Shown here: positions 268 to 17,700 of the stretch, in pieces | Numbering within the stretch: position 1 is the first letter of the stretch | How the letters are laid out: every line of letters starts with the position of its first letter | Source: a phage | Reading direction: 5' to 3' (one strand) | Sequence record: PZ166176.1 | DNA length: 64,000 bases | Made by a program: the position numbers and the translations under genes | Notes under the pieces: generated by a model | Told to the model about the DNA's origin: nothing | Seen by the model: only the letters and a program-made list of their open reading frames with translations | The model's database searches: none

Positions 268-1278
268 ATGGCAGAAAGAGAGTATACAAAAGCTCCTGCC
301 CCTAATTTAAACAGGGCATACAAATTATTAATTGGTTCTGCCACAAACACAATACAGAAGAGAACTAAGAACTCGGCATTTAAATCTACAGTAGATTTGG
401 ATACCAAGTTAGGGACAACAGAAAAATCCTCTTCTAATTTGTATTTGTTGCAAGACCATCAAATAACCTTCAGCATTAAGAAAGATAATAACAAAGATCC
501 TAACCAAGCAGAGATTGTAGTTTATAACCTTTCGGATGATACTGTTAATTATATAAACCGTGGTATCCGAAATAACTTGGCTGTTGCTTTAGCGGTAGGA
601 TACGAAGGTGAAGAGTTGGTTATGATCTTCAAAGGAACTATCCAATGGGTTAGTGATACTTTTGACTCGGTAGACAGGAAAACCACTTTACACTGTTTGG
701 ATGGCGGTATTAACATTGCAGAAGCAAGAACAAGCCGCAGTTATCCAAAAGGAACTAAAATCAAACGTGTTGTGACAGATTTGGTAAAGGATTTAGGAAC
801 TACAGAAGGTAATATACACGTAGATAATGATCAAACCTTATCTTCAGCAACAGCTATGTGTGGAAACACTTCACATTACCTAGAACATATTTGTAAAAGT
901 ATTGATCACAATGTGTCAATACAAGATGGATCTGTTTATGTTACTCCTCGTTCACAAATGTCTAGTGCACGTAGCGCCTATATTAGCCCTGAAACTGGTC
1001 TGATAGGAAGTCCAGAACCATTCCACAACGATATAAAACCTACTAAAAAAGTTACCAAGTCCTCTAAGAAGGCAAAGAAACCTACAGATGGTGTTAAATT
1101 CAAATGCCAAATGAATGGTGCAATATTACCAGAAAAAACAATCTGGTTAAAAAGCCGAGATTATGACGGTCCATTTAAAGTTGTTTCTGTTTCTCACAAT
1201 GGTGATAAAGAGGGTAAAGAGTGGGTTACTGAAGTGGAGTGTGTATCCGTGTCTGAAATAATGACTAAGGAGAAATAA
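268..1278 (+). CDS. putative baseplate hub / tail structural protein
   Basis: 336 aa ORF with AGGAG RBS, immediately upstream of the spike gene; no diagnostic motif seen, function is from position only. Confidence 0.4.
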   Translation: MAEREYTKAPAPNLNRAYKLLIGSATNTIQKRTKNSAFKSTVDLDTKLGTTEKSSSNLYLLQDHQITFSIKKDNNKDPNQAEIVVYNLSDDTVNYINRGIRNNLAVALAVGYEGEELVMIFKGTIQWVSDTFDSVDRKTTLHCLDGGINIAEARTSRSYPKGTKIKRVVTDLVKDLGTTEGNIHVDNDQTLSSATAMCGNTSHYLEHICKSIDHNVSIQDGSVYVTPRSQMSSARSAYISPETGLIGSPEPFHNDIKPTKKVTKSSKKAKKPTDGVKFKCQMNGAILPEKTIWLKSRDYDGPFKVVSVSHNGDKEGKEWVTEVECVSVSEIMTKEK

Positions 1279-2012
1279 TGGATGCATTGAATTTTGTCAC
1301 AGCAATGCGTGGCTTAATGACAGAACAATTAGCAGAAGTCCATACAGCCTTGCCAGTCCGTGTGACTGGTGTTAATTATGGTGCTAAAACTGTCACTTTA
1401 GAATCTATTGTTAAAAACACACGATCTAGTGAAGATGAAATAGATTATCCAACTTTCGAAGATGTTCCTTTCATGGTTAATGGTGGTGGGACAGGAAGAA
1501 TCTCATTCCCTATTAAAGCTGGCGATTTAGGAACTGTTATATTTTCTGAAAGAGATCCTTCTAATGCACTGCAAACTAGTGGGGAAACCTCTTCATCATC
1601 CACTTTTATGCAGCCTTGTGGATTATACCCTATTTGTTTTATTCCCAAAATAGCTACAGGAACAGATTCAACAGAAGCTGTAGATTCTGAAAAGGTAGTT
1701 ATTTCTAATAACAAAAACACGTACGCTTCTTTCGACCCTACAGGTAATATTTCAATATGGAATAGTCAAGGGATGAAAATAGATATTACTACCTCCGGTA
1801 TTACTATTACAGATGGCACAGGAACTTTGGATCTAAAAGGTGGTAATTTAACTTTCAAAGGCGGCGTGGCAGATATCAATGGTCTTAAAATAGACCAGAA
1901 CGGTTTGATGACAGATGGTAATGGCATCGGATTCCATACTCACACGCACACGGTTCGTAACATTCAGAGCGGTAACTCAAGTGCCGAGTCCTTAAAACCA
2001 ACAGGAGCCTAA
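1278..2012 (+). CDS. baseplate central spike protein (P2 gpV / phi92 gp138-like) with His-rich tip
   Basis: 244 aa; TAATG overlap with the upstream gene; C-terminal GIGFHTHTHTVRN resembles the HxH metal-binding tip of membrane-piercing spikes. Confidence 0.55.
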   Translation: MDALNFVTAMRGLMTEQLAEVHTALPVRVTGVNYGAKTVTLESIVKNTRSSEDEIDYPTFEDVPFMVNGGGTGRISFPIKAGDLGTVIFSERDPSNALQTSGETSSSSTFMQPCGLYPICFIPKIATGTDSTEAVDSEKVVISNNKNTYASFDPTGNISIWNSQGMKIDITTSGITITDGTGTLDLKGGNLTFKGGVADINGLKIDQNGLMTDGNGIGFHTHTHTVRNIQSGNSSAESLKPTGA

Positions 2013-2013
2013 C

Positions 2014-2637
2014 ATGGGAATCCCTTTTGACTTAAAGCTTGGACCAAACAACGACCTCATCATGGACGATGGGGATTTGGTCCTCACCACAACCAGAACA
2101 GAAATTGCAGCACAAACTCTTGGGATAACTCTGAACACGTATCGTGGAGAGTGGTTTTTAAATACTAACTTCGGTGTTCCTTACTTACAAGAGATTATTG
2201 GTGTTGCTAGAAAGAAAGATATTGTAGACAGAATATTTTTAGCGGAGATTGCCAAAAACGTTTACATAGATACAATAAACAGTTATAAATCTGCTTACGA
2301 CATGGACCAACGTTATTACTCAATGACAGTTATGGTGACAGTTGGAGCAGATACAGTAACATCCATATTCAATACTCAACCTTCTGAAGAGTTTATTTAC
2401 CCTGAAGCTGGTGAAGACAATGCAGCGATCATTTGTGAAGCTTACAGTATTGTTGAGAATTCGAATAGACTTTATCGCTTTATCAACTTTGTTGGTTTGC
2501 CACGTGATACCTACTCTACTTGGTGGAATGAATGGTCTACAGAGTCAGCAGGGGAAAGAATCATGGTTAACGAAAAAGGTGATGCATTAGCTACAAACAA
2601 TAATTTCGGTATAACAGCTATGACAGGAGTAGAATAA
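2014..2637 (+). CDS. baseplate wedge protein (gp25 / gpW / XkdS-like)
   Basis: N-terminal FDLKLGPNNDLIMDDGDLVLTT...EIAAQTLGITLNTYRGEWFLNTNFGVPYLQEI fits the DL-x-GDL...GEW pattern of gp25/W-like baseplate proteins. Confidence 0.45.
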   Translation: MGIPFDLKLGPNNDLIMDDGDLVLTTTRTEIAAQTLGITLNTYRGEWFLNTNFGVPYLQEIIGVARKKDIVDRIFLAEIAKNVYIDTINSYKSAYDMDQRYYSMTVMVTVGADTVTSIFNTQPSEEFIYPEAGEDNAAIICEAYSIVENSNRLYRFINFVGLPRDTYSTWWNEWSTESAGERIMVNEKGDALATNNNFGITAMTGVE

Positions 2638-3110
2638 TGGCAGATTTAACTACGATCAAAGTTTCTGATCTTACACAAACAACCTCTGTATCTGATACAG
2701 ATTTCTTTGTAACAGATCAGGCTGGAATAACAAAGAAGACTTCTTTGAAAGTGCTGTTGAGTGGTGCAGGGGTAACTAGAAACCGTTTAAATGCACGTGG
2801 AACAGTAACTAGCACCTTGGCATTAGATATTAGTTCAGCAGAATATTTTTCGGCAACTTTATCTTCTGCAACATGCACAATTAGTTTTACTAATATTCCA
2901 GTAGCAACGAATGCAGTTTTAAACTTTACTTTAGCTTTGCGTCAAGGAAGTGGCGCAAATAAAGTCGTATGGCCTTCTTCTGTAAAATGGAGTTTTGGTC
3001 GTTCCCCAGTTTTGAGTTATCGTCAAGGTGCAACAGACACTTTTGAGTTTATCAGTTATGATAATGGTGCAACTTGGACAGGTAGCTTAGTTTTAGCAGG
3101 AGTTATTTAA
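2637..3110 (+). CDS. hypothetical virion protein
   Basis: 157 aa ORF with ATGA-type overlap inside the baseplate operon. Confidence 0.45.
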   Translation: MADLTTIKVSDLTQTTSVSDTDFFVTDQAGITKKTSLKVLLSGAGVTRNRLNARGTVTSTLALDISSAEYFSATLSSATCTISFTNIPVATNAVLNFTLALRQGSGANKVVWPSSVKWSFGRSPVLSYRQGATDTFEFISYDNGATWTGSLVLAGVI

Positions 3111-5986
3111 TGTCAAGAGTTAAGCACAATATTGACAACACGTTTCAGTTGATTGAAGGGTTGGTTCAGTTTTTGGAAAGAAATACTGGGCTTACCATAG
3201 ATCCTACGGTTCAGCATTACATTATCAACCCACAAAACGTATTGGCGAACAACAGACACTTTATTAACTGGACAGCGCAGGAAGGGCAACCAAACGGTGA
3301 CGCTACTACCGAAGGTCAATCTGTGCTTATCACTGGTTTTGCTTATGCATATTTGGCTACAGGGGATAAAAAATATCTTGAATCTGCCGAGAAGTATTGG
3401 CAAGCCTATATAGATCACTTCTTCGGGGGCCAACCTATTCCTGATCCTCCGGCTAAGTATCGTCCCAACTGGATCATCAATGGTAAAGAACCACGTTTAG
3501 CACATTACCCTCTCACAGATGATGGGTATCCTACGCACGGTGGGTTCAAAGGTAGCATGATGACTTGGATTAACGGAAGGACTGTTATTCCTAAAGGTGC
3601 ACCGCATTGGGGGGAATACTTAGATAAAGCTTGGTTTGCTTTCAATGGCAATCTTGGTTGGAACTCCGTTAACGCAACAGTTTATGCAACTAATCCAGAT
3701 GGTTCAACCAACTGGAAAGAATATGGAGATCAGTGGGACGTTGAATGGATTATAGATCGTCTAGGACGTAAAGTTGATTGGGATGGTAACATTTTATCTA
3801 CAGATCACAGCTTCGCAGAATATGGAACAGTGCAACTTAAAAATGCTTCTGTGAACGGTGATTATAAATTCAACTACGCTACATGCAACCCTGTAGAACA
3901 CGGTGGATATCTGCTTAAGCGTAATGAGATGTGGCATAACCGTCCTGTAAACGTTCCGGTAGAGTTAGGTTATCAAGATAATGCTTCCGATGCTGAAACG
4001 TGGTGGTGTGATGCAAACTACTTGATGTATCAGATCACAGGAGAGAGAAAATACTGGCTTTGCTGGCAATCTTCTTTATTGTTGTGTCAAGACTACTCAA
4101 ACATCGATATGTTTGATAAATTCTTCCGTAGATCTACGACAGCAATAATTCCTTTTACAGATGGTATCTCGTATGATTACTCATACCCATCTACAGCAAT
4201 ACCTAAATATTCTCGTGACGAATTAGGATACACAGTAATTCGCCAAGATGTTTCAGCACAAACAACTCTAGAACAACAGGCAGTTTGGTTCAGAGTAGAT
4301 CAGAATTCAAAACTGCGTATTGAGTTTCAAGGTGTAGATGATGCAGGGGAAGGTGTTCTTTTCCGTCCAGAGCTAGAATTAAGCAAAACTAAGAGTGAAA
4401 CAGACACAGTGACATATCGTTGTGGCTTACCTCTTGGTGCAGCTAATATGACTAAGATGGATATACCTTTATCTAGTTTTATGCGCACCGAACCTCCTGG
4501 AGGTGGTGTATATATTATTGCTGAACCCAGAATTATTGTTGACTGGGGAAGCAATACTGTGATACAATATAAATATGCAACTGGTATTGCTGGGACAAAT
4601 AGTGATCAGATAGTTTCTGCTAATATGGATTCAGATGGTGGTTTTACTGTTGGGTTTTGGTTAACACCAACTAAAACAGCCAATTTAAAATCTATTACAT
4701 ATCGTTCATACGCAGATGATTTTAACATCACTATTACGGATTCCGCAGGTTGGAGATGGTGGGCCATGTTAGAAAAAACAAATTCTGCATGGGTTACTAA
4801 AGCTTTAAGTCCTGCTGATTTCAAATTAAGCACTTGGCAACCCAATCATAACGACACAGAGACAAAACCTTCGTCAATAAACCTGACTGCTGTTGATCAG
4901 ATCAACATTGCATTGGATTCTGAACCTGCAAATGGCTTGACAGGGGCAATCGATTTTTATTGTGTTAACGATATCCCATCTTTGTATTCTTCAGCCGCTG
5001 GTGATGATTACACAATGTATTTCAGGGTTACAGTTTCATCTGAAAATCCTTATACAGCAAAACTTGGAGATTGTACAATACTGGACTATAAACTTGACAG
5101 TTTGAATTATACTCCAGGAATCATTCCATTTTCCAATATTAGTGATCCTAACACAGCATTATATGACGGTTGGCGTGGTATTCCTTACCCAGGTTATCAA
5201 TACCCATCCTTATATTGTTTTAAAGGGAGAGATATTGACTGGGTTCGTATGAACAACAGTATAGACTTTTTATATGATTCACAAATGTGGTTTTATAATA
5301 AGTTTGCCCCTGTAATGCCTGGGCCAATGGCACAAGCTTATGTTTGGGATCGTTGGGATGCTCATAAATATGGAAACAAAAATGAGTTCACAATGTATCA
5401 TTGGAACGATAAAGCTTGGGATGGTTATGAAGCACGAGCATTCTTCTGTGCGTGTCATACGGTATACGAACTAAAGCGACGAGGAGCCGAAGTTCCTGAA
5501 AAACTTTTAACAGTTTGTAAAAACTGGATCAACTACCTGAAGTGGTTCCAAGATAACAACGAAGGAAGAACACCAACAATATTTTATCCCAACGGAGAAG
5601 TGGCTGCGCCTGTAGATGACTTTACAAGTCACATGTCTGCGCTCTTTATGGCGGGATGTGCTATAATGGGGATGGCTGGATATGATTCAGAAATTCCTAA
5701 CATTAAAATAGTAGCAGACCGCTGTTTTGAACTTATTCAGGAAAACTATATTGTTCTTGGTCCTAATCACGTTATGAATGGTTGTTGGAGTGCTGCTCCT
5801 AGACCAGACAGTGATAACGGAGTCTTCTTTGGCTTCCACGCTGGAGAGTTGTTACGTGGTTTTGGGTTGTATGCTTTATACAAAAAACTTAATCCCCAAA
5901 ATGCATTACCTGTTTTGGATTCGAGCAATATTCCTGCACTTACTGTTTTGACAATGGCAAACATTAGTGTGGACGTTACCGAGTAA
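3110..5986 (+). CDS. large baseplate/tail structural protein
   Basis: 958 aa uninterrupted ORF, translationally coupled to neighbours; rich in Trp, Tyr and Asn as in phage fibre and wedge proteins. Confidence 0.55.
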   Translation: MSRVKHNIDNTFQLIEGLVQFLERNTGLTIDPTVQHYIINPQNVLANNRHFINWTAQEGQPNGDATTEGQSVLITGFAYAYLATGDKKYLESAEKYWQAYIDHFFGGQPIPDPPAKYRPNWIINGKEPRLAHYPLTDDGYPTHGGFKGSMMTWINGRTVIPKGAPHWGEYLDKAWFAFNGNLGWNSVNATVYATNPDGSTNWKEYGDQWDVEWIIDRLGRKVDWDGNILSTDHSFAEYGTVQLKNASVNGDYKFNYATCNPVEHGGYLLKRNEMWHNRPVNVPVELGYQDNASDAETWWCDANYLMYQITGERKYWLCWQSSLLLCQDYSNIDMFDKFFRRSTTAIIPFTDGISYDYSYPSTAIPKYSRDELGYTVIRQDVSAQTTLEQQAVWFRVDQNSKLRIEFQGVDDAGEGVLFRPELELSKTKSETDTVTYRCGLPLGAANMTKMDIPLSSFMRTEPPGGGVYIIAEPRIIVDWGSNTVIQYKYATGIAGTNSDQIVSANMDSDGGFTVGFWLTPTKTANLKSITYRSYADDFNITITDSAGWRWWAMLEKTNSAWVTKALSPADFKLSTWQPNHNDTETKPSSINLTAVDQINIALDSEPANGLTGAIDFYCVNDIPSLYSSAAGDDYTMYFRVTVSSENPYTAKLGDCTILDYKLDSLNYTPGIIPFSNISDPNTALYDGWRGIPYPGYQYPSLYCFKGRDIDWVRMNNSIDFLYDSQMWFYNKFAPVMPGPMAQAYVWDRWDAHKYGNKNEFTMYHWNDKAWDGYEARAFFCACHTVYELKRRGAEVPEKLLTVCKNWINYLKWFQDNNEGRTPTIFYPNGEVAAPVDDFTSHMSALFMAGCAIMGMAGYDSEIPNIKIVADRCFELIQENYIVLGPNHVMNGCWSAAPRPDSDNGVFFGFHAGELLRGFGLYALYKKLNPQNALPVLDSSNIPALTVLTMANISVDVTE

Positions 5987-5994
5987 GGGGTAAA

Positions 5995-8148
5995 ATGAAA
6001 CAAGCTATATTTACTGTCACGCGAGACAAGAGAGTAAATGCGAGTTCATTTAACTACACGACTGTTGACGGAACAGCAGTCGCTGGTAGAGATTATATTG
6101 CAAAATCGGGAACACTTGTGTTCCCTGATGATGCGGATTCTGCTACTATTGTGGTTGAAGTATTTGAACGACCAAAGAACTCAATAGATCTTAACTTCTC
6201 CCTCCAAGTTTCAGGGATTAGTCAAAATAACATGATGGTTGAAACGACCATTAATTGTATTATAACTACTATCCAAGAAAATACTACTCCAATAACTTGG
6301 ACTACAAAAGACGTTAAAATGTTCTCTCCTATGTATTGGACAATAGATTCTCAAGCAACGGAAAGTTGTTCTATTGTATCTCATGGAGACTCTTTTACTG
6401 CAAGATTTGTAAACAGAACAACAGCAGGTTTGGCAGGGGTTATCTGGAGCACAGTTGACAAATATGACCATAAAGGTGTTGGGTATTTGCCTCACACAGA
6501 TTTAAGTTCAGAGAAACTTTGGTTTAAAATGGAAATTAGTCAAAACATGCCAGGTTTTAAAGAAGAACCTTTGGTGCCGACTTTGACTGTAACTCTCCTG
6601 GATAAAAGTGTTCATTATGTCAGTTTAGGATTCTACGCTTCAGATATTTCAGAAGATGGTAAAACAGCCACAATAAAGTTAGATTTTGGTAATATCTTTT
6701 CTGGCCCTAATAATGATATTCCTTTGGATATGAGTGCTGTAGATAATATTTTCTTCTCTTTGATTACAGCAAGGTATGAAGAAATAGAAGAGATTATACC
6801 TATTGCCAGTCAAGAGGCTTGGTTTACTTTCACTCTTCTTGAACCTACTTCTGGTTACAGTATGATGAAAGTCAGCAACCTTGTCCAGCCTGAACATGAT
6901 ATTCGCATGTGCACATCTTATGATGATATGTATAACCTGACTCCAGAGAGAGTTATTTATAATACATATGCACTAGGTTATCGTGGAATGATTAACCATT
7001 ACAACGGAATGTCTCACTATTATGAGTTCTCATGGAACGGAACATCTTGGGCTTTAAATAGATCTGTTTTCCTGAATCCGGCTACAGAAGCTTGGCTTAA
7101 CAGTTTCCATTCTATAGCTAATGAAAATGGCTACACAATAATGAACTCTTTGAGTTTTGAGTTGATGAGCACAGTTTGTCCTGTTGAATGGGTCCAGCAT
7201 GATTGGAACGATGCTCTTGCAGCAACAGGGTATAAGCCTCCTAGTTACGTGTTGTCTCCAACTATTGACGAAGGCATGGAATATTTGCAAAATGTTATTA
7301 ACAAAATAGCATCTATTTCTCAAGCTAATAACATTCCAGTCGTAATTCAAATTGGTGAACCTTGGTGGTGGTATAATACAGCAAGTAAAATGCCTTGTAT
7401 ATATGATTACACTACCAAACTGGCATTCAATACAGAAACAGGCTTATTTGCACAAGACGCAGGAACAATAGATAATTATAAAACAGGAACACCATTTGAC
7501 GAATACTATGCATTTTTGTCTCGTAAACTAGGGTTAAGAGTTACAAAGTTTGCAACAGACACCAGAGCAACTTATCCTGGAGCTAAAGTAACATTGCTTC
7601 CGTTCTTACCGTCAATTATTGGCAACGGTTTGATGGAGAAAGTTAACTTCCCGTCTGATTACTACATTCCTGAAGCTTTTGATTTTTACTGTTCAGAGTG
7701 TTACGACTGGCTTCTGGAAGGTAAAATGATGAAAGCATTCGATGCAATTACCATACCACATGAAAAATTAGGTTTTGAATATTCTGATATTCACTATCTT
7801 TCGGGTTTTGTTCCAGATGCTACTCTTGCACCTTTGTATGGCTTCGATCCTGAATCAAACTACCGCACGTATCTTTGGAAAATGATTATAGGTAATATAG
7901 TGTTGAACGCCAATAAGTTCAATGGGCTTACACAATATATATGGGCCTATCCTCAAATAATGCATGATTCCATCACGGTAGTTAATTCTCAATCCCAAGT
8001 TTTCTATATGGGTAATGTGCCTTTGAATTGTTATTTGCAAGATATCACTCTTAAACAAGCAAATGTTGAGATTGCTACCATAAGTGGAATTACATTAGCT
8101 ACTAAATCTGGAGAAGATTTAGTAACAACACAAAAATTTTATATATAG
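5995..8148 (+). CDS. structural protein with N-terminal Calx-beta domain
   Basis: 717 aa; N-terminus TVTRDKRVNASSFNYTTVDGTAVAGRDYIAKSGTLVFPDDADSATIVVEVFERP matches the Calx-beta signature (T-x-DGTA-x-DY...G-x-L-x-F). Confidence 0.55.
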   Translation: MKQAIFTVTRDKRVNASSFNYTTVDGTAVAGRDYIAKSGTLVFPDDADSATIVVEVFERPKNSIDLNFSLQVSGISQNNMMVETTINCIITTIQENTTPITWTTKDVKMFSPMYWTIDSQATESCSIVSHGDSFTARFVNRTTAGLAGVIWSTVDKYDHKGVGYLPHTDLSSEKLWFKMEISQNMPGFKEEPLVPTLTVTLLDKSVHYVSLGFYASDISEDGKTATIKLDFGNIFSGPNNDIPLDMSAVDNIFFSLITARYEEIEEIIPIASQEAWFTFTLLEPTSGYSMMKVSNLVQPEHDIRMCTSYDDMYNLTPERVIYNTYALGYRGMINHYNGMSHYYEFSWNGTSWALNRSVFLNPATEAWLNSFHSIANENGYTIMNSLSFELMSTVCPVEWVQHDWNDALAATGYKPPSYVLSPTIDEGMEYLQNVINKIASISQANNIPVVIQIGEPWWWYNTASKMPCIYDYTTKLAFNTETGLFAQDAGTIDNYKTGTPFDEYYAFLSRKLGLRVTKFATDTRATYPGAKVTLLPFLPSIIGNGLMEKVNFPSDYYIPEAFDFYCSECYDWLLEGKMMKAFDAITIPHEKLGFEYSDIHYLSGFVPDATLAPLYGFDPESNYRTYLWKMIIGNIVLNANKFNGLTQYIWAYPQIMHDSITVVNSQSQVFYMGNVPLNCYLQDITLKQANVEIATISGITLATKSGEDLVTTQKFYI

Positions 8149-8156
8149 GAGTAAAA

Positions 8157-10103
8157 ATGTCAACTACAATTACTAATTTACCCGAAACATCAAAAGTTAA
8201 TGGTTCTGATTACCTAGTTTTAGACCAATCTGATAAGACCGTTAAAAGCACAGTTTCTAACTTTCTTGCTGACACTGGGGTGGTTTTAGCCACCCAGTTG
8301 AAAGATACAAATGGAGCAGATTTAATACAATCCTCAAATGGTAATACTGTTCAGGAAGAGTTGAATAACAATCTTCTTAATGATCGTGAACAGTGGTGTC
8401 GTAGTCTTGCTGAGGCAGGGTTAACCCTTGTCAACGGTAGCTTTGAAGAAGGCGCTACATTAAATAATAAGACCGATGCTGTTTGGTATATTGCAGGCGG
8501 TCAGTGTTATTCATGGGATGGTGCACTACCTAAAGAAGTTCCAAATGGCTCAACTCCAGAAACATCTGGTGGTGTTGGTCTGGGTGCGTGGGTTAGTGTT
8601 GGTGATGCATCGTTGCGCACTGAACTTTCCTCTTTATCAGGGGCTAATCTTGTTGGGTATAGCGTTTCCATGAGATATAATGAAGAGACTGTTGGGTGGA
8701 TGTTAGAAAATCTCACCGACAGAGCTTTATCATCAAGTGATTTCCCTGGAGACGATGCCGGAGAACAAATAAATAACGGTCTTGATTTTTTACGCTCCCA
8801 GAATGAGAAATATAGACAAGGGGGAACATTAAACCTACCCAGAGAAACACTGAATGTATCGACACCGATTACACTCGACAGAACTCCAAGCGGTGCGCCA
8901 GATGAAAATGATGAATATACAATATCTGGCTCTGGAAAAGGAGGGACAGTACTGATAGCGGGTAATAGCTTCCCACCAGATAAAGCGGTTTTAACAACTA
9001 ACTCTGCTAATGGTAATGCGGTTCAAGGTTTTAAATTAAAAGACTTTTCCATCAGGGGTGGCAAAAACGGACTTCGTATTGAAACCGCATCAAGAAGTAT
9101 AATAGACAGCATCAAAGTTTCGGGATCAGGTTCGGACGGTATTTATGTAGGTAATAGCTGGGTCAATCTTTATAGTCAGGTGCTTGTAGATTCAAGCGGT
9201 GGTAATGGAATTACGTTCGATAATAGTCTACAAAAAACAAGCACAACAGTACTTTCAGGATACCAGTTAAAAAACAAGGGGTCAGGTTGGGATTTTGGTT
9301 TTATGAACTATTCAGTGGCAATTGCCACTGCTTCAGATCAGAACTCACAACATGGCTATAAAATATCAAGGTCGGAAGGATTTGTTCTTATATCTCCGGG
9401 AGCGGAAAGCAACGGGGGTGCTGGTATATTAGCTGAGGCATCAACATCTTTAGGGGAAAACAAGAGCGTCCTAATTCAAGGAGCTTTTTGCCACAATAAT
9501 AATAAGATAGGTACTTACGCGAATCTTTTATATGCGGTGAGTACTGCTAACACAATAAACCGTGTAAAAATAACAGATAGCACAGCACATTCCAGCCCTG
9601 TAGGTTCTCCAGATGTTGTTGCTGATGGGAACGAATGCGTTGTCACAATAGATAACTGCGTACTACCTAACGGCTGGGAATCCAGAAATGGTGGATATAT
9701 TGACTGGGTTCATCATACCCTATATGTACAGAAACCAGGAATCACAGGGGCAACAGCCATATGCAACTTAAGAGGAACTCAGGGGCACGGTAGAAATGAA
9801 GCTTCTGCTTCTGATAGTTTTGCTGGGGAAGTAACCATAGTAGCAAGTCCATTAGCGCCTTCAACAGCGACAAGACGACTTGCTATCTATAAACTTTTTA
9901 TTTGCGTAGCAGCGGATACCGGCGTTCAATGCGAAGTGATAAAACAATTGGGTTACGTATCTGGAAATGTTCCAGGTTCGCCAAGTTTCACATGGAGCAT
10001 CGGTTCATCTCATGAATTGATAGCAACCCCAATAGGGTCTACAGCCGGAACGTTCTATTTTGAAATCACAACGGATTCGCAAGTTGTAGCCCTCAAAAGA
10101 TAA
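8157..10103 (+). CDS. tailspike/tail fibre protein with right-handed beta-helix (depolymerase-like)
   Basis: 648 aa; N-terminal fibre-attachment motif (PNGSTPETSGGVGLGAWVSVGD) shared with ORFs 14789 and 17904; Gly/Asn/Ser-rich beta-helix-like repeats; hairpin terminator follows. Confidence 0.6.
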   Translation: MSTTITNLPETSKVNGSDYLVLDQSDKTVKSTVSNFLADTGVVLATQLKDTNGADLIQSSNGNTVQEELNNNLLNDREQWCRSLAEAGLTLVNGSFEEGATLNNKTDAVWYIAGGQCYSWDGALPKEVPNGSTPETSGGVGLGAWVSVGDASLRTELSSLSGANLVGYSVSMRYNEETVGWMLENLTDRALSSSDFPGDDAGEQINNGLDFLRSQNEKYRQGGTLNLPRETLNVSTPITLDRTPSGAPDENDEYTISGSGKGGTVLIAGNSFPPDKAVLTTNSANGNAVQGFKLKDFSIRGGKNGLRIETASRSIIDSIKVSGSGSDGIYVGNSWVNLYSQVLVDSSGGNGITFDNSLQKTSTTVLSGYQLKNKGSGWDFGFMNYSVAIATASDQNSQHGYKISRSEGFVLISPGAESNGGAGILAEASTSLGENKSVLIQGAFCHNNNKIGTYANLLYAVSTANTINRVKITDSTAHSSPVGSPDVVADGNECVVTIDNCVLPNGWESRNGGYIDWVHHTLYVQKPGITGATAICNLRGTQGHGRNEASASDSFAGEVTIVASPLAPSTATRRLAIYKLFICVAADTGVQCEVIKQLGYVSGNVPGSPSFTWSIGSSHELIATPIGSTAGTFYFEITTDSQVVALKR

Positions 10104-10106
10104 AAA

Positions 10107-10133
10107 CAACCCCGCTTCGGCGGGGGGTTCTTA
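10107..10133 (+). terminator. rho-independent terminator candidate
   Basis: CCCCGC-TTCG-GCGGGG hairpin followed by TTCTT, just after the stop at 10103. Confidence 0.55.
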
Positions 10134-10152
10134 GAAAAACAAAGAGGTACTT

Positions 10153-10464
10153 ATGAACGAGATGTTCTCACAAGGTGGTAAAGGTTCAACTGGAATCTTA
10201 ACCAATAAACAAGCAGTAGCCCGTCACTTTGGAGTTAAACAATCTGAGGTTGTTTACTTCTCAGTTGGTGCACTGCTTGATGGGTACAAAGTTATCTATG
10301 ATAAGGAGACGCAAAGGGCGTATTCCCTACCTGCTGATATTGCCCCAGGTACTATTGCCATTAGTCTTAGTGCTGCCGGAGTATTAGTTCACTCTGCGGG
10401 TAATGTGGACCTTGGGGAATTAGCTGTATCTCGTGATTTAAAAAGTAATGAGAACGCACTATGA
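10153..10464 (+). CDS. hypothetical protein
   Basis: 103 aa ORF with RBS, between tailspike and baseplate genes. Confidence 0.4.
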   Translation: MNEMFSQGGKGSTGILTNKQAVARHFGVKQSEVVYFSVGALLDGYKVIYDKETQRAYSLPADIAPGTIAISLSAAGVLVHSAGNVDLGELAVSRDLKSNENAL

Positions 10465-10703
10465 GAAAATTTTTAATAGGTATGTTCTGTACATATCCTG
10501 ATAATAAAGTCAGTTCTACGAAAGTCTGGAACGCTGTAGGCATGTCGGTTATGACAGGCATGTTTATCTTTTTAGGAATAGAAAAAGAAATTCCTGAATG
10601 GATGGGTTGGGCTTTTGTTTTCATGATAACTCCTTCTCGCCTCATGAAAAATCTTATTGATTTACGCTGGGGCAGATCACAATCTACCAAAGAGGATGAC
10701 TAA
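10461..10703 (+). CDS. hypothetical small membrane protein
   Basis: 80 aa with a hydrophobic segment (GMSVMTGMFIFLGI); ATGA overlap with the upstream ORF. Confidence 0.4.
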   Translation: MRKFLIGMFCTYPDNKVSSTKVWNAVGMSVMTGMFIFLGIEKEIPEWMGWAFVFMITPSRLMKNLIDLRWGRSQSTKEDD

Positions 10704-12190
10704 TGGACGAATATGGTTTGACAGATGCGGGATTTGTAATCCCGACTTTTGACGATGTTTTAAACAACTACATGACAGCAGTAAAAAACACATTTGGTGC
10801 AGATGCAGCCACTTCGGAAGATACTGTGATCGGACAACTGTTTAGAATAATTGCATACACAGATTACACATTGTGGGAAGGTATGCAAGGTGTTTACAAT
10901 ACTCAAACACTGGATGGTGCAGAAGGTATTTATCTTGATGAAATCTTTTCTAAACGCGGTTTCTATCGAGCAGGGGCAGCAGCAAGTACAGGTTATGCAT
11001 ATGTTAAGAGTAATAACAAAGCAGCTTGGACTTATGAGCTAGGCACGGATATTTACTTCAACTCTGATAGTGATATGAACTACTATGTTAGCACACCAAC
11101 TATGTTGAATGCTAAGATTGCAGCTTATCAAATCTCTCGTGCTAATGCAACTGCTACAGGTGTTCCAAATATTACTTTTTATGCACAAAGTGCGGTGGAT
11201 GGAGGACTAAACAGTAAAACACTTGCACCTGGTTCTTCTACATTTATAACCGATCTTGAAACTTTTATCAAGGCGAATTTAACAGAAGCTGATCGTAGTC
11301 TTGTATTTTCTGATTCAGGTAACTTATCAATTGGTTTTACTTCTTTAACCAGCGATACTCCAGTGGGACTAGTAACTCCTATCAAATTTTATGCCAGTGT
11401 TCCAGTTGGAACCAAATGGAGTGAAATTCCAGTAGTTGCAGCAGAGAAAGGATACAATCCTGTTGGTGTGGAGTCTATTACAGGGATATCTTCTACCTTT
11501 ACAGGTTATCTTGACAGTGGTAACTTTTATTCATTTTCTCCTGGTCGGGATGTTGAGACAGATGCAGAATTCCGCTCTCGTTTCAATGACAACGTTGATG
11601 AAGCTAACGCAGGGACACGAGCAGCTATTGTGAAAGCTCTGTTACTTACAGATGGTGTTACTAAGGTGAAGATTTATGATAACCCTACGTTACATGATCA
11701 AGAACACGCTCCAGCTATGACTTTCCAGACTATAGTTTATGGTGGCAGTGCAGAAGAAATTGCAAATGTTATCTATAAAACCAAACCAATCAACACTTTG
11801 ACACACGGAACAACTAACATAACAGTTACAACAGAAGATGGAGGACAAGAAATTATTCGCTTCTCTCCTGGTGCTTCTGCTATGTATTCCGTAAAACTTG
11901 TTTATCAAACTGTCAACGGAACAACTTTAAGTGGAACAGAAAAACAAAACATCGTAGAAGCTTTACAAAACCTGCAAGCTTACTTTGAGTTAGGTTCTTC
12001 AGTAACGAACGATCAAATCAAAGGTGTTATTTATGCAGCACTTGCTTTTGGACGCTTGACTTCTCTTCGTGTTTATGTTAAACTTAATACTGAGGATGAC
12101 AGTAAATATACAGAGAATAATATAGTTCCTGCTTATAATGTTGTCCCTTCTTTTGACCTTGATAACATTTCTTACGAGTATGGAGTGTAA
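10703..12190 (+). CDS. baseplate wedge protein, gpJ / gp6-like
   Basis: 495 aa; N-terminal region and gene order (followed by a gpI-like protein and a fibre) resemble the baseplate J family. Confidence 0.45.
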   Translation: MDEYGLTDAGFVIPTFDDVLNNYMTAVKNTFGADAATSEDTVIGQLFRIIAYTDYTLWEGMQGVYNTQTLDGAEGIYLDEIFSKRGFYRAGAAASTGYAYVKSNNKAAWTYELGTDIYFNSDSDMNYYVSTPTMLNAKIAAYQISRANATATGVPNITFYAQSAVDGGLNSKTLAPGSSTFITDLETFIKANLTEADRSLVFSDSGNLSIGFTSLTSDTPVGLVTPIKFYASVPVGTKWSEIPVVAAEKGYNPVGVESITGISSTFTGYLDSGNFYSFSPGRDVETDAEFRSRFNDNVDEANAGTRAAIVKALLLTDGVTKVKIYDNPTLHDQEHAPAMTFQTIVYGGSAEEIANVIYKTKPINTLTHGTTNITVTTEDGGQEIIRFSPGASAMYSVKLVYQTVNGTTLSGTEKQNIVEALQNLQAYFELGSSVTNDQIKGVIYAALAFGRLTSLRVYVKLNTEDDSKYTENNIVPAYNVVPSFDLDNISYEYGV

Positions 12191-12192
12191 AA

Positions 12193-12822
12193 ATGGCAGT
12201 GAGTGTTGACCATGTAACAACTTGGGCCAGTATCAATGAAGATGTTAAAAACCTTCTGATTGAAGATTTTAAATCTTCTCCTAACATTGTCAAGCTCCTC
12301 TACATCGTATCCAGTGAAAAGCAAAAGATAGATCAGGCAATGATCTATCTTGCTAAACACCGCTTGATCTCTACAGCCACAGGCAAATACCTAGATATTC
12401 TAGGGGAAGAAATGGGGATCGAACGTAATGGCTCTGATGATGAAGAGTATAGAACAATATTAAAAATCAGGGCTTACCGCGTAGCCTCATCGGGGACTCG
12501 TGGTGACATAATTGATATCTTCGCCCGTTTCACAGGAACAGAGCGTGAAACGCTTAATACTTACGTAGGTTTGAATAAAACCTTTGATGTGTTTTTCTAC
12601 AACCTGTGTCTTCAATCTGATCAAGCTTTAGAGCAGTTGCTAAGTGTTTTCCCTATTATTAGTAGCTACCGTCTTGGAGCAAAAGCAGGATCAGCTTTTG
12701 GTTTTAGTTCTTATTATGCTACCAAACCGCCTCATGGTATTGGTGGTTTAGGTTCCCTGTACATGGAATCTACTGGGGATGAAACAGGACGCATGTGTAC
12801 GCTTCTCAAGCAAATAGATTAA
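12193..12822 (+). CDS. baseplate/tail protein, P2 gpI-like
   Basis: 209 aa; GKYLDILGEEMGIERNGSDDEEYRTILKIRAYRVASSGT resembles the conserved core of tail protein I family; sits directly after the J-like gene. Confidence 0.4.
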   Translation: MAVSVDHVTTWASINEDVKNLLIEDFKSSPNIVKLLYIVSSEKQKIDQAMIYLAKHRLISTATGKYLDILGEEMGIERNGSDDEEYRTILKIRAYRVASSGTRGDIIDIFARFTGTERETLNTYVGLNKTFDVFFYNLCLQSDQALEQLLSVFPIISSYRLGAKAGSAFGFSSYYATKPPHGIGGLGSLYMESTGDETGRMCTLLKQID

Positions 12823-12831
12823 GGAGTTTAA

Positions 12832-13893
12832 ATGGCGAAGCCAATATATTATCCTGACTGGGCTACACAAACTGTAACGCTCCCAGGAACTTTAAACACA
12901 AACAAAATTAGACCTAAAGAAACCATCCGCACAGTTGGTATGGATTATGGTCAAATCATGACTTGCGAAGAAATGAACTGGATTCTTAATAATATCGGTT
13001 TATGGATTCGCTATTTGGTGGATGACTTTCTTCCAACTTTGCCTGATACTTACTTGCCTTTAGTGGGAACTAAGATTACAATGGCTGGTGACGCTACTGG
13101 TGAGGCTACTTGGAATGGTAACAAAGAAGTTACTTTATCTATCCAGGTTCAAGATAACAGTCATAATCACTTGTCGGCAAACATTACAGATGCCACTAGT
13201 TCAACAGTAACACCAAACGTGCTGGTAAAACGTGATGCGGGTGGTGCTATTTATGGTGGCGATGTTTATGTTAACGGTACTTCCACAACAGATCCTGCAA
13301 CACTGTTCTTCAAAAACTTTGCAGGACAAACAAATGGTGAGATTTCTGCCGAGTATCAAAGCGGAGGTCAGCTTTATATTTATCGTAGAAATCCTAGCAC
13401 AGGTAGTGTATCGGCAGGTGTTCGTTTATATGATGCAGGTTATGTTCTAATAGATAATCCAAGATCAAACAGTGGACAAGATACTTCTAACGGAAATGCT
13501 TTAGTTCGTTTAGATTATCTGAACTCTCGTTTGACTTCCCTTCAGAACACATTGCAGACGAATATTAACACTGTTCAAAATAACTTGAATAATGTTAACA
13601 GCAACCTTTCTTCCCGTATAAACAATGTAGAAAGTAATCATCAAAGTCAGATTACAAATAACTACAATTATGCTAACGGAACCTTTGTAAGAGATATTCG
13701 TTATACTAGCCAAGGTGTGTATTATCCACCAGGGAACGAGGTTTCTTGGACTTATATCTGTTCTTCTGGTTATGTTCTTTCTGGTATTATCGTACAGGAA
13801 ACAGGACGTAGTTCTGCGGATAACATCGGTGGGGTTTATTTCAAACGCCTCCAGCGCAACGTTAACGGAAACTGGTACGATATCGGAGGCTAG
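12832..13893 (+). CDS. tail fibre protein with Asn-rich coiled-coil
   Basis: 353 aa; heptad-like segment LDYLNSRLTSLQNTLQTNINTVQNNLNNVNSNLSSRINNVESN. Confidence 0.5.
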   Translation: MAKPIYYPDWATQTVTLPGTLNTNKIRPKETIRTVGMDYGQIMTCEEMNWILNNIGLWIRYLVDDFLPTLPDTYLPLVGTKITMAGDATGEATWNGNKEVTLSIQVQDNSHNHLSANITDATSSTVTPNVLVKRDAGGAIYGGDVYVNGTSTTDPATLFFKNFAGQTNGEISAEYQSGGQLYIYRRNPSTGSVSAGVRLYDAGYVLIDNPRSNSGQDTSNGNALVRLDYLNSRLTSLQNTLQTNINTVQNNLNNVNSNLSSRINNVESNHQSQITNNYNYANGTFVRDIRYTSQGVYYPPGNEVSWTYICSSGYVLSGIIVQETGRSSADNIGGVYFKRLQRNVNGNWYDIGG

Positions 13894-13894
13894 A

Positions 13895-14440
13895 ATGAGA
13901 TTTACAAATTTTAAAAGATATATTCCCGAAGATCCCGAACTAAAAGAATTGGTAGAAGTAGAGAACATTCTTTTTCTTCGTTGCGATCAAGGTTACGATT
14001 GGTATGATTTACGTAGCACAGAATTCAATAACGATAAAATGAAAGTCGTTTTTGACGATCAAAATCGTATTGTGTTTTGGAATACTGATCCTACACTACT
14101 TTGCCCTGAAGATCTTTCTATAGCACAAGTAGACTTTAATATAGATACTTTTGAGGATATTAGGAACAAGGTTCTGGATTTAGAAACCTTAACTCTTAAG
14201 GATAAAGAGTATTCCCGTGAAGAGTTGATGACACAAGCTAGTGCAAAAATTCGCTCTTTACAAGAAACAGCGGTAGCACTTATAACACCTTTACAGTATG
14301 CTAAAGATTTAGAAATGGCTACTGAAGACGAATTAGCTTATCTTAAAAATCTTCAAGTTTATGTAGTTAAACTAAATCGTGTTCCGCTTCAAAAAGACTA
14401 TCCTTACGCTATAGATTGGCCTACATTACCGACAGAATAA
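13895..14440 (+). CDS. putative tail fibre assembly protein / chaperone
   Basis: Start moved to the ATG right after the upstream stop (track start 13715 overlaps the fibre gene); position and size fit a Tfa-like chaperone. Confidence 0.4.
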   Translation: MRFTNFKRYIPEDPELKELVEVENILFLRCDQGYDWYDLRSTEFNNDKMKVVFDDQNRIVFWNTDPTLLCPEDLSIAQVDFNIDTFEDIRNKVLDLETLTLKDKEYSREELMTQASAKIRSLQETAVALITPLQYAKDLEMATEDELAYLKNLQVYVVKLNRVPLQKDYPYAIDWPTLPTE

Positions 14441-14788: not shown

Positions 14789-17700
14789 ATGGCAACATTC
14801 CCAACATATCCAGCAACGTCTCTCGAACAGGGCGTAGACCTGGTTATTTTCTCATCTAACCAACTCCATGATGTTATTAATGGAAGTGCTACAGAGAGTA
14901 TTGAAACAGAATCAGGGTTGATACCAACCCTGAGAAAAGCCCTTGTTGACAACTTTTTCTTTAAAAGCCCATTGGATTGGGCGCAAGGCACAAACGAAAC
15001 AGTTTTTAACCAACTTCGTTATTTCCAGAATGGAGTATTGAGCGGTTATTACTATGCCCCTAACGCTACATTGGTTAACCCAATCCCTATGCAAGGGACT
15101 CCAGTAGGAGATAACAACTGGGTATTGTGGGGACTGAAGACAGAACAATTGGCAACAGAAGTCACCCCTTGGGTATATTCTGGTGCAACTGGTTATGAAA
15201 CAGTAATTAGTCCTCCTTACATCTTTGATAGTGCTATTGTTACGATCAATGGTGTTATTCAGGTTCTGGGGGAAGCTTTCCGTATAGAAGACAGTAAGAT
15301 CATCTTATCTGAACCTTTGGGACACGATCCTGCAACAGGACTGCCAAACAAGCTTTTTGCTTATATTGGTAAAATCGTAGCTTCAGCAGATACAGATCCT
15401 AATCTAGAGAACCGTCTTGTTAGTTTAGAAACAAAAACGGAAGAACTAACAGAAAGCATGGATAAAGTCCCTCTGCAAGCTATTGCTCGTAAGTATGGTT
15501 TGTTAGATGATGAGGTGGCTTACGCAACAGCAGGTCAATCGTTAACAGGGATTAAAGCTCTGTATGATCCGGTAGCACAGTCTTCCTACACATTACCTCC
15601 TAACATCACAGGAACTTTAACATCCTTATCTGTTTCTGGAGTAATGACTTATTCTGGAGGATCTGTAGACCTTTCTGCACTGGCTGTTGAGCGTGGACAG
15701 TTTGTTCATTTGCCTACAAGCTTTGGTAATAACGTAACTCTGACAGCTAAAAATCAGACGATTGGACGTGGTGCTGGTCGTTATCGTTGGGCTGGAAGTT
15801 TACCAAAAAGTATTTTGGCCTCTGATACATTGGAGACAAGCGGAGGATTAGGTCCAAATGCATGGGTTCTGACTAATACAGAAGGACTGTTAACCCCTCG
15901 TGGTGGAACATACAACGATCTATTCGATGTTGTCTACTTGTCAGAATTTGCTAACAATACAACTACCTATACCACACCAGAAGCAGCTTTCCAGGCGGCA
16001 CTGTTAGCAGCAAAAGCTTCGAAAAGCAAGATTCTCGATGCTTACGGTTGCGACATGACTTTCACGACAAGCTCTTTTGATATTCAAGATATCACTTTGC
16101 GTGGTGGTGTGTTCCGTGGTCAACGCGACTATCGTGTGCAGAATGCTACAGTAGAAGGCACAACTTTCCGTAACTCTCGTGTTATGTATTGGGGTGGTGC
16201 TGTGCGCATGTTCGATTGTTTGTGGGACGGTGCTCCTCGCGCAGGTCAAGTTGGTAGCTTGGTATTCCAAGGCAACCCAATATCAGGTACTTTTGAAATT
16301 GATAATTGTACTTTTAAAAACGGGTTATATGGCATTCTTCAACAAGGAACAGGGGAACCAGTAACACGCGGTGTCTTCCGTAACCTTACCTTCATGGACA
16401 TGCAAGGTGATGCAATAGAACTGAACGTCATCAATAAACATTATGACGATGGTTGTGTGATTGAGAATATTTACCTGTCTAATATCGATGGGACTAACGC
16501 TCCTATTCCTCTGTCCAACTGGGGTATCGGTATCGGTGTAGCTGGTAAAGGACCATATGGTTACGGAATCCCTGATGATCAATATTGTAAGAACATTACA
16601 ATTCGTAACGTTTTTGCAAAACGTTGTCGTCAGATTGTCCACGTAGAAGTTGGTCGTAATATCTCTATCGAAAACATTCATGGCGATCCAGATCAAACCG
16701 TATCTGTTGGGACAGGTTTGGCAACTGGCGCAGTTGTAATGTATGGAAGTAAAGACTTTACGATTGATGGTGTTTATGGAGAGCCTAAAACAGACGGTAG
16801 CACACTTGCAAGTAATATCCGTATGATTTACTTGGAGTGGGGAACTAACGCAGTTCTGGATGAAGAGGGTAATCCGGTAGTTCCGGCACAGGGCAGACCT
16901 TCAAACCCATGCTTTAACTATTCTGTTCGTAACATTCACACCAAAACTGGGCGTGTTTTTGCGGGAGTTTCCGCTGGGCCAGGTTATGAAAACAGAGTTA
17001 GCTTTGAAAATATTCGTTGCGCTGCCTTGCAGTTGTTCGGTATAGCTTCTTGGCTTTCAATGTCTAACATCACCTGTAATATCTTCGATTGTGTTGGTCA
17101 ACCTGAATCTGGTCCAGGGACATTTTATGATGGATTCTTCCGTAGAGAAAAATCTGTTCTTGAAATGGTTAACGTAAACTGTTACCCAGATGGCAAGACG
17201 ATGGTTACTGGTCGTCCACAGTGGAGCCGTTGCCGTTACTCGGATATTCATCGTGTCAACTGTAATGTTGAAGCTAATATGTATACCAATATCGCAGGTG
17301 GTATTGGAGCTATTGTAGGGACAACGGGCAAAGTTTATTACTTAGAGCCTAATCCTAGTCGAAACATTGATGGAATGCATTTCCCAACAGGGAAAGAGTT
17401 TGACAAAGGGGATATGATAGTCAAGGCGGATAATACGTTCTTCCTTGTAACAACAAGTGGGGCATATATTCCAGATATCCCAGCTTTCGGTATTCGAGCT
17501 ACACAGGCAGGAGATACCTTCCTGACACAGAACTTGACTCCTAACGGGACAGCAACAAATGCTTCTTGGTTGTATCATTACCCTCTGTCAGCAGGGACAC
17601 GTATCCGTATTCCTGGCGCTGGTGTAGGTGGAGCAGATTTGGACACAGTTATTACTCGTGCACCTTATCAAGATAATGATACGTGGACTAACCCAGTTAA

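Follow-up and report, generated by a model that had tools for sequence, protein, structure and literature searches.

Background

Bacteriophage N4 carries a six-fold non-contractile tail sheath formed by gp64 and gp65, of which gp65 is the N4 receptor-binding protein (PMC13434306). The BASEL study described N4 gp64 as homologous to the conserved lateral tail fibre of the Vequintavirinae and their relatives (PMC8594841), and Sellner et al. found that Vequintavirinae, phi92-like phages and N4 all need wecB and nfrB, two genes for the synthesis of the NGR glycan (PMC8669472). A 2026 preprint identifies gp142 of phage phi92 as an NGR-binding protein, and reports a GMSHY motif that is perfectly conserved in NGR-targeting myoviruses and N4-like podoviruses (bioRxiv 10.64898/2026.04.02.716166). 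Here we analyse a stretch of 64,000 nucleotides of phage DNA (record PZ166176.1; hereafter "the window"), in which the open reading frame (ORF) 5995..8148, on the plus strand, encodes a 717-amino acid (aa) member of this protein family. Its first 92 residues form a genuine Calx-beta sandwich of a degenerate, phage-specific subtype, the canonical calcium sites of which, judged from sequence alignment, are lost. We consider it somewhat probable, a little better than an even call, that the protein as a whole is a baseplate-associated receptor-binding/adaptor protein, whose non-calcium-sensing Calx-beta domain is a proximal docking or structural module and whose C-terminal tail holds a tailspike.

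Gene and domain layout

The window is 96-98% identical in DNA sequence to many Phapecoctavirus genomes (phAPEC8-like myoviruses of about 150 kb, Stephanstirmvirinae). By this measure it comes from a Phapecoctavirus, a phAPEC8/phi92-like myovirus. The start of the ORF at position 5995 is firm, because a Shine-Dalgarno-like site precedes the ATG, a stop codon closes the same frame 10 codons upstream, and no ATG, GTG or TTG lies between. The upstream gene (3110..5986) is read in a different frame. Pfam detects three domains above their gathering scores (Calx-beta, NCTSP_N and TIM-barrel_NCTSP), and NCBIfam gave for this protein a sodium/calcium exchanger model below threshold and nothing else. 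The full-length AlphaFold2 model has a predicted local distance difference test score (pLDDT) of 90.7 and a predicted template modelling score of 0.88. The layout is as follows.

5985..5990, plus strand: AAGGGG, Shine-Dalgarno-like, read from the sequence; 4 nucleotides (nt) before the ATG at 5995 and overlapping the upstream TAA (5984-5986)
5995..6270, plus strand: Calx-beta domain, aa 1-92 (PF03160, AlphaFold2 strands, Foldseek); six strands B-G, without strand A and most canonical calcium ligands
6058..6141, plus strand: hallmark Calx-beta motif, aa 22-49, TTVDGTAVAGRDYIAKSGTLVFPDDADS, the peptide cited by the first-pass annotation
6166..6198, plus strand: E-F loop ERPKNSIDLNF, aa 58-68, counterpart of the NCX1 calcium loop D446-F456, DDDIFEEDENF
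6313..6870, plus strand: NCTSP_N beta-sandwich (PF23844), aa 107-292 (Pfam, 59.9 bits; alignment to PDB 9lc0_I)
6889..7968, plus strand: TIM barrel of the N4 gp64/gp65 type (PF23845), aa 299-658 (Pfam, 266 bits; N4 gp64 matches)
7006..7020, plus strand: GMSHY motif, aa 338-342, with G338, M339 and S340 invariant; motif assignment from bioRxiv 10.64898/2026.04.02.716166
8044..8145, plus strand: C-terminal tail, aa 684-717, with disorder predicted from aa 695; candidate docking peptide for the downstream tailspike

The N-terminal domain

The Pfam family PF03160 matches residues 4-82 at profile positions 24-104 of 119 (42.2 bits, E-value = 9.2e-11, against a gathering cut-off of 27 bits). A profile built from six N-termini of the family matches, in the PDB, the calcium-binding domains (CBDs) of CALX and NCX1 and the Calx-beta domain of integrin beta4, with E-values down to 1.9e-16 (CALX CBD12). 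In a Foldseek search with the AlphaFold2 model of residues 1-104 (pLDDT 81.5), the top 32 PDB matches are all Calx-beta domains, with template modelling (TM) scores of 0.61-0.81; CALX CBD1, NCX1 and integrin beta4 lie at 0.77-0.81, integrin beta4 being the best at 0.81. The hallmark D-G-T-A-x-A-G-x-D-Y ... G-x-L-x-F is present (VDGTAVAGRDYIAKSGTLVF at aa 24-43), and residues T23, T27, A28, A30, R32, D33, Y34 and G39 are invariant across the family. When the six-sequence profile was run against 1.84 billion representative sequences, 49,270 cluster representatives were retrieved at E<=0.001. The best 150 of them measure 1,372-7,524 aa and contain 10-58 matched stretches each, a pattern to be expected of giant, multi-repeat Calx-beta proteins; no phage architecture was seen among these 150, and the search confirms membership of the superfamily only.

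The match is thus far above chance. A generic immunoglobulin (Ig)-like sandwich with a fortuitous motif might be suspected from the single copy of the domain, the partial coverage of the Pfam profile and the modest 42 bits. This suspicion has to contend with a score above the gathering cut-off, profile E-values to 1e-16 against solved Calx-beta domains, the uniformity of the top 32 structural matches, and hallmark residues that stay invariant in a family diverged to 34-38% identity, and we hold its probability to be negligible. The first-pass annotation, which was made from the letters without database searches, had placed a Calx-beta domain at the N-terminus of this protein, at 5995-6180, and had proposed a Pfam profile search and structure prediction as checks. 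Both speak for it: the profile match exceeds the gathering score and the predicted structure is the Calx-beta fold, not a different one. The start of the interval was also right; its end was too short, as the domain reaches about residue 92 (position 6270) and 5995-6180 covers the first two-thirds.

A classical Calx-beta domain has seven strands, A to G. The AlphaFold2 strands of the phage domain (residues 3-9, 17-25, 38-43, 49-56, 66-73 and 85-90) are six, corresponding to B-G, and the chain starts 3-4 residues after the position of NCX1 E385, so that there is no strand A. Two candidate sources of such a strand were rejected. An upstream extension or a frameshift fusion is incompatible with the in-frame stop, the lack of a start codon after it, and the different frame of the upstream gene. 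Residues 101-108, as a replacement strand, are part of NCTSP_N and are common to N4 gp65, which has no Calx-beta domain.

The calcium ligands

In CBD1 of NCX1 the calcium ligands are E385, D421, D446, D447, I449 (through its backbone), E451, E454, D498, D499 and D500, and E385 ligates three of the four calcium ions (PMC3386913). We mapped these positions onto the phage family through the ungapped HMMER alignment between the family profile and NCX1, the register being fixed by E454K in structure 3us9 (offset +388). The E385 position falls 3-4 residues before Met1 and has no counterpart. D421 corresponds to D33, which is invariant in the family but belongs to the structural GxDY motif. D446 corresponds to E58 (E, E, E, Q, E and P in six family members) and D447 to R59 (R, R, R, H, K and H in the same six, basic throughout). 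D448 is replaced by P60, E451 by S63 and E454 by L66, and D498, D499 and D500 by I93, Q94 and E95. By this mapping, of nine ligand positions with acidic side chains, six are missing or hold a non-acidic residue. Acidic residues persist at D33, E58 and E95 only, the latter two not being conserved in the family, and the acidic ligand cluster of the NCX1/CALX CBD1 type is not found. The E-F loop contains 1-3 acidic residues in the family versus seven in NCX1. A PDDADS loop in the window protein is not conserved either: relatives have PSNALS, PKGEKS, EKGATS or EIGQKS. The basic residue kept at the D447 position may stand in for a metal in balancing charge, by analogy with the NCX1 E454K mutant, in which the lysine takes the charge role of the metal (PMC3386913).

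The phage domain shares with NCX1/CALX (CBD1 and CBD2) and integrin beta4 the same fold (TM scores 0.77-0.81) and the same DG-x-A-x-AG-x-DY...G-x-l-x-F motif. It differs from all of them in the missing strand A, in the degenerate ligand cluster (D447 to R/H/K), and in being a single copy at the extreme N-terminus of a virion protein. The Calx-beta domain of integrin beta4, the best structural match, is not known to bind calcium, and the phage domain probably resembles it rather than CBD1 in calcium independence.

The first-pass annotation had read the domain as calcium-binding and suggested calcium-dependent adhesion or assembly, that is, a functional domain that makes adsorption or baseplate assembly dependent on Ca2+. 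The fold is indeed that of the NCX/CALX calcium sensors; D33, E58 and E95 are still acidic and the PDDADS loop is present. In addition, the related domains of Henunavirus, phage S6 and Parlo gp073 (described below) keep DD at the D446/D447 positions, making ancestral or residual metal binding conceivable, whereas the gp142 family has E-R, Q-H, E-K or P-H. Against calcium binding stand the six lost or replaced ligand positions (among them E451, E454, D498 and D499, which read S, L, I and Q), the charge reversal at D447, which is basic in every one of the six family members, the loss of E385 together with strand A, the lack of conservation of the PDDADS loop, E58 and E95 in rV5-like and other relatives, and the existence of Calx-beta domains, such as that of integrin beta4, that are not known to bind calcium. 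We find this proposal unsupported and quite improbable. The label "Calx-beta" should not be taken as a sign of calcium dependence in this phage group.

Orthology with phi92 gp142 and rV5 gp034

The product of ORF 5995..8148 is 99% identical to database proteins that bear the names "Calx-beta domain protein" (PV191315.1), "putative tail fiber protein", "non-contractile tail sheath" and "hypothetical protein". In full-length comparisons that include the Calx-beta domain (tblastn, BLASTP), it is 75-77% identical to proteins of Justusliebigvirus (phi92-like) and 43-48% identical to those of rV5-like phages. The gene order corresponds one-to-one with that of phi92: the hub gp137, the spike gp138, the gp25-like sheath initiator gp139, the 157-aa gp140 and the 958-aa tail protein gp141 are followed by ORF 5995..8148 in the place of gp142. 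The correspondence continues with a tailspike at the gp143 position, small genes and the Baseplate_J wedge gene gp145, and extends from gp137 to gp147. The wedge proteins of the window are encoded at 10703-12190 and 12193-12822. The two genes that flank the ORF are listed here.

3110..5986, plus strand: 958-aa tail protein, ortholog of phi92 gp141 (phrog_2871 "tail protein"; synteny with phi92)
8157..10103, plus strand: tailspike at the phi92 gp143 position (Tail_spike_N, PF18668, at aa 92-150; PDB matches to tailspikes)

Full-length similarity, synteny and the GMSHY motif, the three marks of the phi92 gp142 group, are all found, and on these sequence grounds the protein is an ortholog of phi92 gp142 and rV5 gp034. 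These proteins are known as the "lateral tail fiber" of Stephanstirmvirinae and Vequintavirinae and are proposed NGR-binding receptor-binding proteins; they share with the window protein the match over the whole length, Calx-beta included, the gene order from hub to wedge, and the GMSHY motif. The differences from phi92 gp142 lie in the genus (Phapecoctavirus) and in the downstream tailspike, the body of which differs from the phi92 endosialidase. The description of the product as a baseplate-region structural protein, also due to the first-pass annotation, agrees with the position of the gene between the hub, spike and gp25-like genes and the Baseplate_J wedge gene. Both the domain and the protein family are already present in public annotation, as Pfam detects the domain and a near-identical protein is entered in GenBank as "Calx-beta domain protein"; taken by itself, the finding is a small addition.

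The upstream 958-aa gp141-like protein gave no Pfam match and no PDB sequence match. In the BASEL annotation, the ortholog of this protein is a lateral tail fibre that contains several glycosidase domains.

The N4-type module

The Calx-beta domain is followed by the NCTSP_N sandwich and the TIM barrel, both above their cut-offs and in that order. For the central and C-terminal parts of the protein, N4 gp64 and gp65 are the best PDB matches, gp64 (9lc0_M) being matched at E-values of 7.5e-30 (phmmer) and 2.5e-21 (Foldseek). The TIM barrel also resembles, in Foldseek, glycoside hydrolases (GHs), the C-terminal domain of PgaB (4p7n/4p7l) and Cwp19; this likeness probably accounts for the label "poly-GlcNAc deacetylase" used in earlier papers. 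Among 23 homologs the barrel has invariant acidic and aromatic residues, and GMSHY lies inside an invariant block.

The beta-sandwich and the TIM barrel are thus homologous to those of N4 gp65/gp64 (PF23844, PF23845), and for both systems the literature provides a link to the NGR/NfrA pathway. The differences are considerable. N4 gp65 lacks a Calx-beta domain, has ten domains, and wraps a podovirus tail as part of a six-fold heterodimeric sheath, whereas the protein studied here is a single 717-aa chain encoded in a contractile-tail baseplate cluster (gp25-like, Baseplate_J, hub and spike genes). A sheath around a non-contractile podovirus tail does not fit such a cluster, and "non-contractile tail sheath" is a misleading name for this myovirus protein.

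The single chain matches gp65 (PDB 9lc0) over aa 101-164 and 272-344, and gp64 over aa 361-606. Gene fission, gene fusion or paralogy may connect the N4 heterodimer with the one-chain protein.

The region in front of the module varies between lineages while the sheath-type module is kept. Homologs in Acinetobacter prophages are without the Calx-beta domain, and other homologs, some of them from Pseudomonadota metagenomes, have DUF2460 (PF09343) at the N-terminus instead. Homologs with no N-terminal domain or with DUF2460 point, like the cassettes described below, toward an N-terminal docking module.

Calx-beta domains at the N-termini of other phage proteins

The Calx-beta fold is uncommon among viral proteins (6 BFVD matches at E<=1e-3). 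By tblastn and structure search we found the following relatives. Erwinia phages of the genus Henunavirus possess a stand-alone 117-aa Calx-beta protein in the tail-fibre locus, in addition to the GH48 glycoside hydrolase gp074 with an N-terminal Calx-beta domain. The N4-like Erwinia phage S6 and its relatives likewise encode GH48 enzymes (gp094 in S6) that start with a Calx-beta domain. Gp070 and gp073 of Serratia phage Parlo and related proteins of Klebsiella (SopranoGao/LASTA) and Erwinia phages are annotated as "CalX-like domain protein", and Pseudomonas phage Skulduggery is also among the relatives. The remark in the first-pass annotation that the domain is unusual in virion proteins therefore holds for viral proteins at large, but the domain recurs on the tail glycanases of several phage groups and is already named in GenBank.

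In an alignment of seven N-terminal Calx-beta domains of phages, all begin at or within 9 residues of NCX1 G388, and therefore without strand A. The strand-A stretch of NCX1 in that alignment is presumably correct; its numbering agrees with that of K373 and H501 in PMC3386913. In every case examined at the gene level, a glycan-active tail protein bears the domain at its very N-terminus, and the gene for this protein directly follows that of a large glycosidase-type tail protein. S6 gp094, Henunavirus gp074, Parlo gp070/gp073 and the SopranoGao/LASTA proteins are thus like gp142 in having the domain at Met1, without strand A, in front of a glycan-active module and after the gene of a large glycosidase tail protein. 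They differ from the gp142 family in their bodies, which are GH48 or sialidase-like instead of the N4-type sheath module. In three of these phages the arrangement takes the form of a two-gene cassette, in which the first gene encodes a GH5 cellulase that has Ig-like domains and the second a glycan-active protein tagged at its N-terminus with Calx-beta.

1323-6339 of locus L002: cassette of Henunavirus
5637-10424 of locus L005: cassette of S6
994-5856 of locus L003: cassette of Parlo, with a different second enzyme

The GH48 proteins of Henunavirus (a myovirus) and S6 (a podovirus) are 64% identical from end to end, Calx-beta domain included. The GH5 partners encoded upstream of them are alike in their Ig and GH5 parts (51-59% identity) and differ in their N-termini, that of Parlo carrying a Gp77 fibre-tail adaptor domain. 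The pair of GH5 protein and Calx-beta protein thus travels as a cassette with the lineage-specific anchor on the upstream protein only; it is chiefly for this reason that we propose the Calx-beta domain as the means by which its protein docks to the one encoded upstream. The 157-aa gp140-like protein of the window and the small "tail fiber" protein beside Parlo gp073 are unrelated.

The same comparisons bear on the principal competing explanation, in which the Calx-beta domain is an accessory glycan-binding or spacer module that helps the TIM barrel or glycosidase engage exopolysaccharide, with no part in virion attachment. The domain is in phages always fused to glycan-active or glycan-binding modules (GH48, sialidase-like, NCTSP TIM barrel), in bacteria it is found together with GH5 cellulases and CBM2 and, as long stalks of repeats, in giant proteins, and the GH48 and Calx-beta unit moves whole between myovirus and podovirus, as befits a domain owned by the enzyme over a lineage-specific anchor. 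Its invariable location at the extreme N-terminus, from Met1 and without strand A, is atypical of an autonomous binding module, however, and neither the stand-alone 117-aa copy in a tail-fibre locus nor the structural tail parts (DUF2460) found at the N-terminus in other lineages is easily accommodated. To our knowledge, no glycan-binding function is known for Calx-beta domains. We regard an accessory role of this kind as the main rival to docking, possible but rather unlikely.

The C-terminal tail and the downstream tailspike

At the other end of the protein, residues 695-717 have pLDDT values below 50 and are predicted to be disordered (AlphaFold2). Some homologs in Phapecoctavirus and Justusliebigvirus match aa 1-683 only (short form). 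The short-form genomes phAPEC8_ev052 and JohannJBalmer have no tailspike gene between the gp142-like gene and the wedge gene; in the long-form genomes (the window, phi92 and KKE7M) a tailspike gene begins 8-11 nt downstream of the stop codon. There are 81 phage records with the C-terminal tail. About 79 records share the N-terminal 45-57 residues of the tailspike (8157-8327) with at least 80% identity, including records whose spike bodies differ (tblastn of aa 1-90), and in the rows checked the tailspike match begins 12 nt beyond the point where the C-tail match ends. Phage ESCO32 has been reported to have nothing at the gp143 position, and ESCO8 and ESCO9 to have a spike or spike remnant there (PMC10269720). 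The gp142-like protein of ESCO32 is of the short form, and those of ESCO8 and ESCO9 are of the long form. The association of tail and tailspike is based on a gene-by-gene reading of these two short-form and three long-form loci, and for the rest on record counts and the three ESCO phages.

This pattern suggests a tail-to-spike docking pair with a recombination boundary near aa 683, and the co-occurrence of tail and tailspike suggests that the gp142-like protein is also an adaptor. We infer that the C-terminal tail would be a docking peptide for exchangeable tailspikes. If the tail is such a dock, the polarity of the protein follows, with the Calx-beta domain proximal and the tail distal.

In a megablast search with positions 5000-9000, similarity to the nearest Phapecoctavirus genomes ends at about 8600-8625, some 150 aa into the tailspike and just past Tail_spike_N. 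As the similarity ends there, the receptor-binding body of this spike would be a different allele from those of its nearest relatives.

A putative place in the virion

In the arrangement that we favour, the N4-type beta-sandwich and the TIM barrel with its GMSHY motif would be the working parts of the protein, a module that the literature ties to recognition of the NGR exopolysaccharide. The Calx-beta domain would fix this enzyme-like protein to the virion, the candidate partner being the upstream gp141-like tail protein, and at the opposite end the disordered C-terminal 30 or so residues would carry the exchangeable tailspike, whose gene lies downstream. The resulting chain would run from the gp141-like protein through the gp142-like protein to the tailspike.

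Cryo-electron microscopy of phi92 shows an L-shaped fibre I with the endosialidase at the arm tip, and a fibre II that was not assigned (PMC13450770). Gp141 and gp142 would be natural candidates for the fibre I arm or the fibre II density.

Several observations weigh against this arrangement. The N-terminal domain is somewhat less conserved than the rest of the protein, with 70% versus 77% identity to phi92-like and 37% versus 48% to rV5-like homologs, whereas an anchor under strong constraint would be expected to vary less. The gp141-like protein does not resemble the GH5 partners found in the other phages, which leaves a shared docking surface hypothetical. Where one phage has paralogous Calx-beta N-termini, these have about a third of their residues in common, by an estimate made by eye in the alignment. 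A non-canonical metal site is conceivable on the sequence evidence. The phi92 study mentions neither gp141, gp142, Calx nor calcium, and gp141 and gp142 were neither resolved nor assigned in it (PMC13450770). Lastly, the place of the Calx-beta domain at an interface is itself an inference only.

A more specific version of the docking model can be formulated. The strand-A-less Calx-beta domain would be completed by a beta-strand donated from the partner encoded upstream (donor-strand complementation), and would be a portable "plug" by which monomeric glycan-active proteins are hung on tail appendages across morphotypes. In Stephanstirmvirinae this would yield a daisy chain of gp141-like protein, gp142-like protein and tailspike, accounting for the L-shaped arm of phi92 fibre I or for fibre II. 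We put this version forward as a speculation that is unlikely to hold in all its parts.

With Calx-beta at the proximal end, the NGR-associated barrel in the middle and, at the distal end, a tail that co-occurs with a swappable tailspike, the layout suggests how the multivalent adsorption apparatus of phi92-, phAPEC8- and rV5-like phages may be wired. These phages have a broad host range and are of interest for therapy, and the layout matters for host-range engineering by tailspike exchange.

Other genes of the window

No tRNA gene was found in the 64-kb window by ARAGORN. Beyond the baseplate cluster, 14789-17842 encodes a 1017-aa protein, located where phi92 has its gp150 colanidase and containing Tail_spike_N at aa 302-361. 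It is followed by a 674-aa protein (17904-19928), in which Tail_spike_N covers aa 12-77 and collagen repeats cover aa 454-485, and by an 890-aa protein (19970-22642) with an RCC1-like propeller and a Big_2 domain. The listed 241-aa ORF with a GTG start at 13715-14440 overlaps the end of 12832-13893, and its match to the tail-fibre assembly family Caudo_TAP is confined to aa 161-239. Its true start probably lies just after 13893, where a related record has a 181-aa gene.

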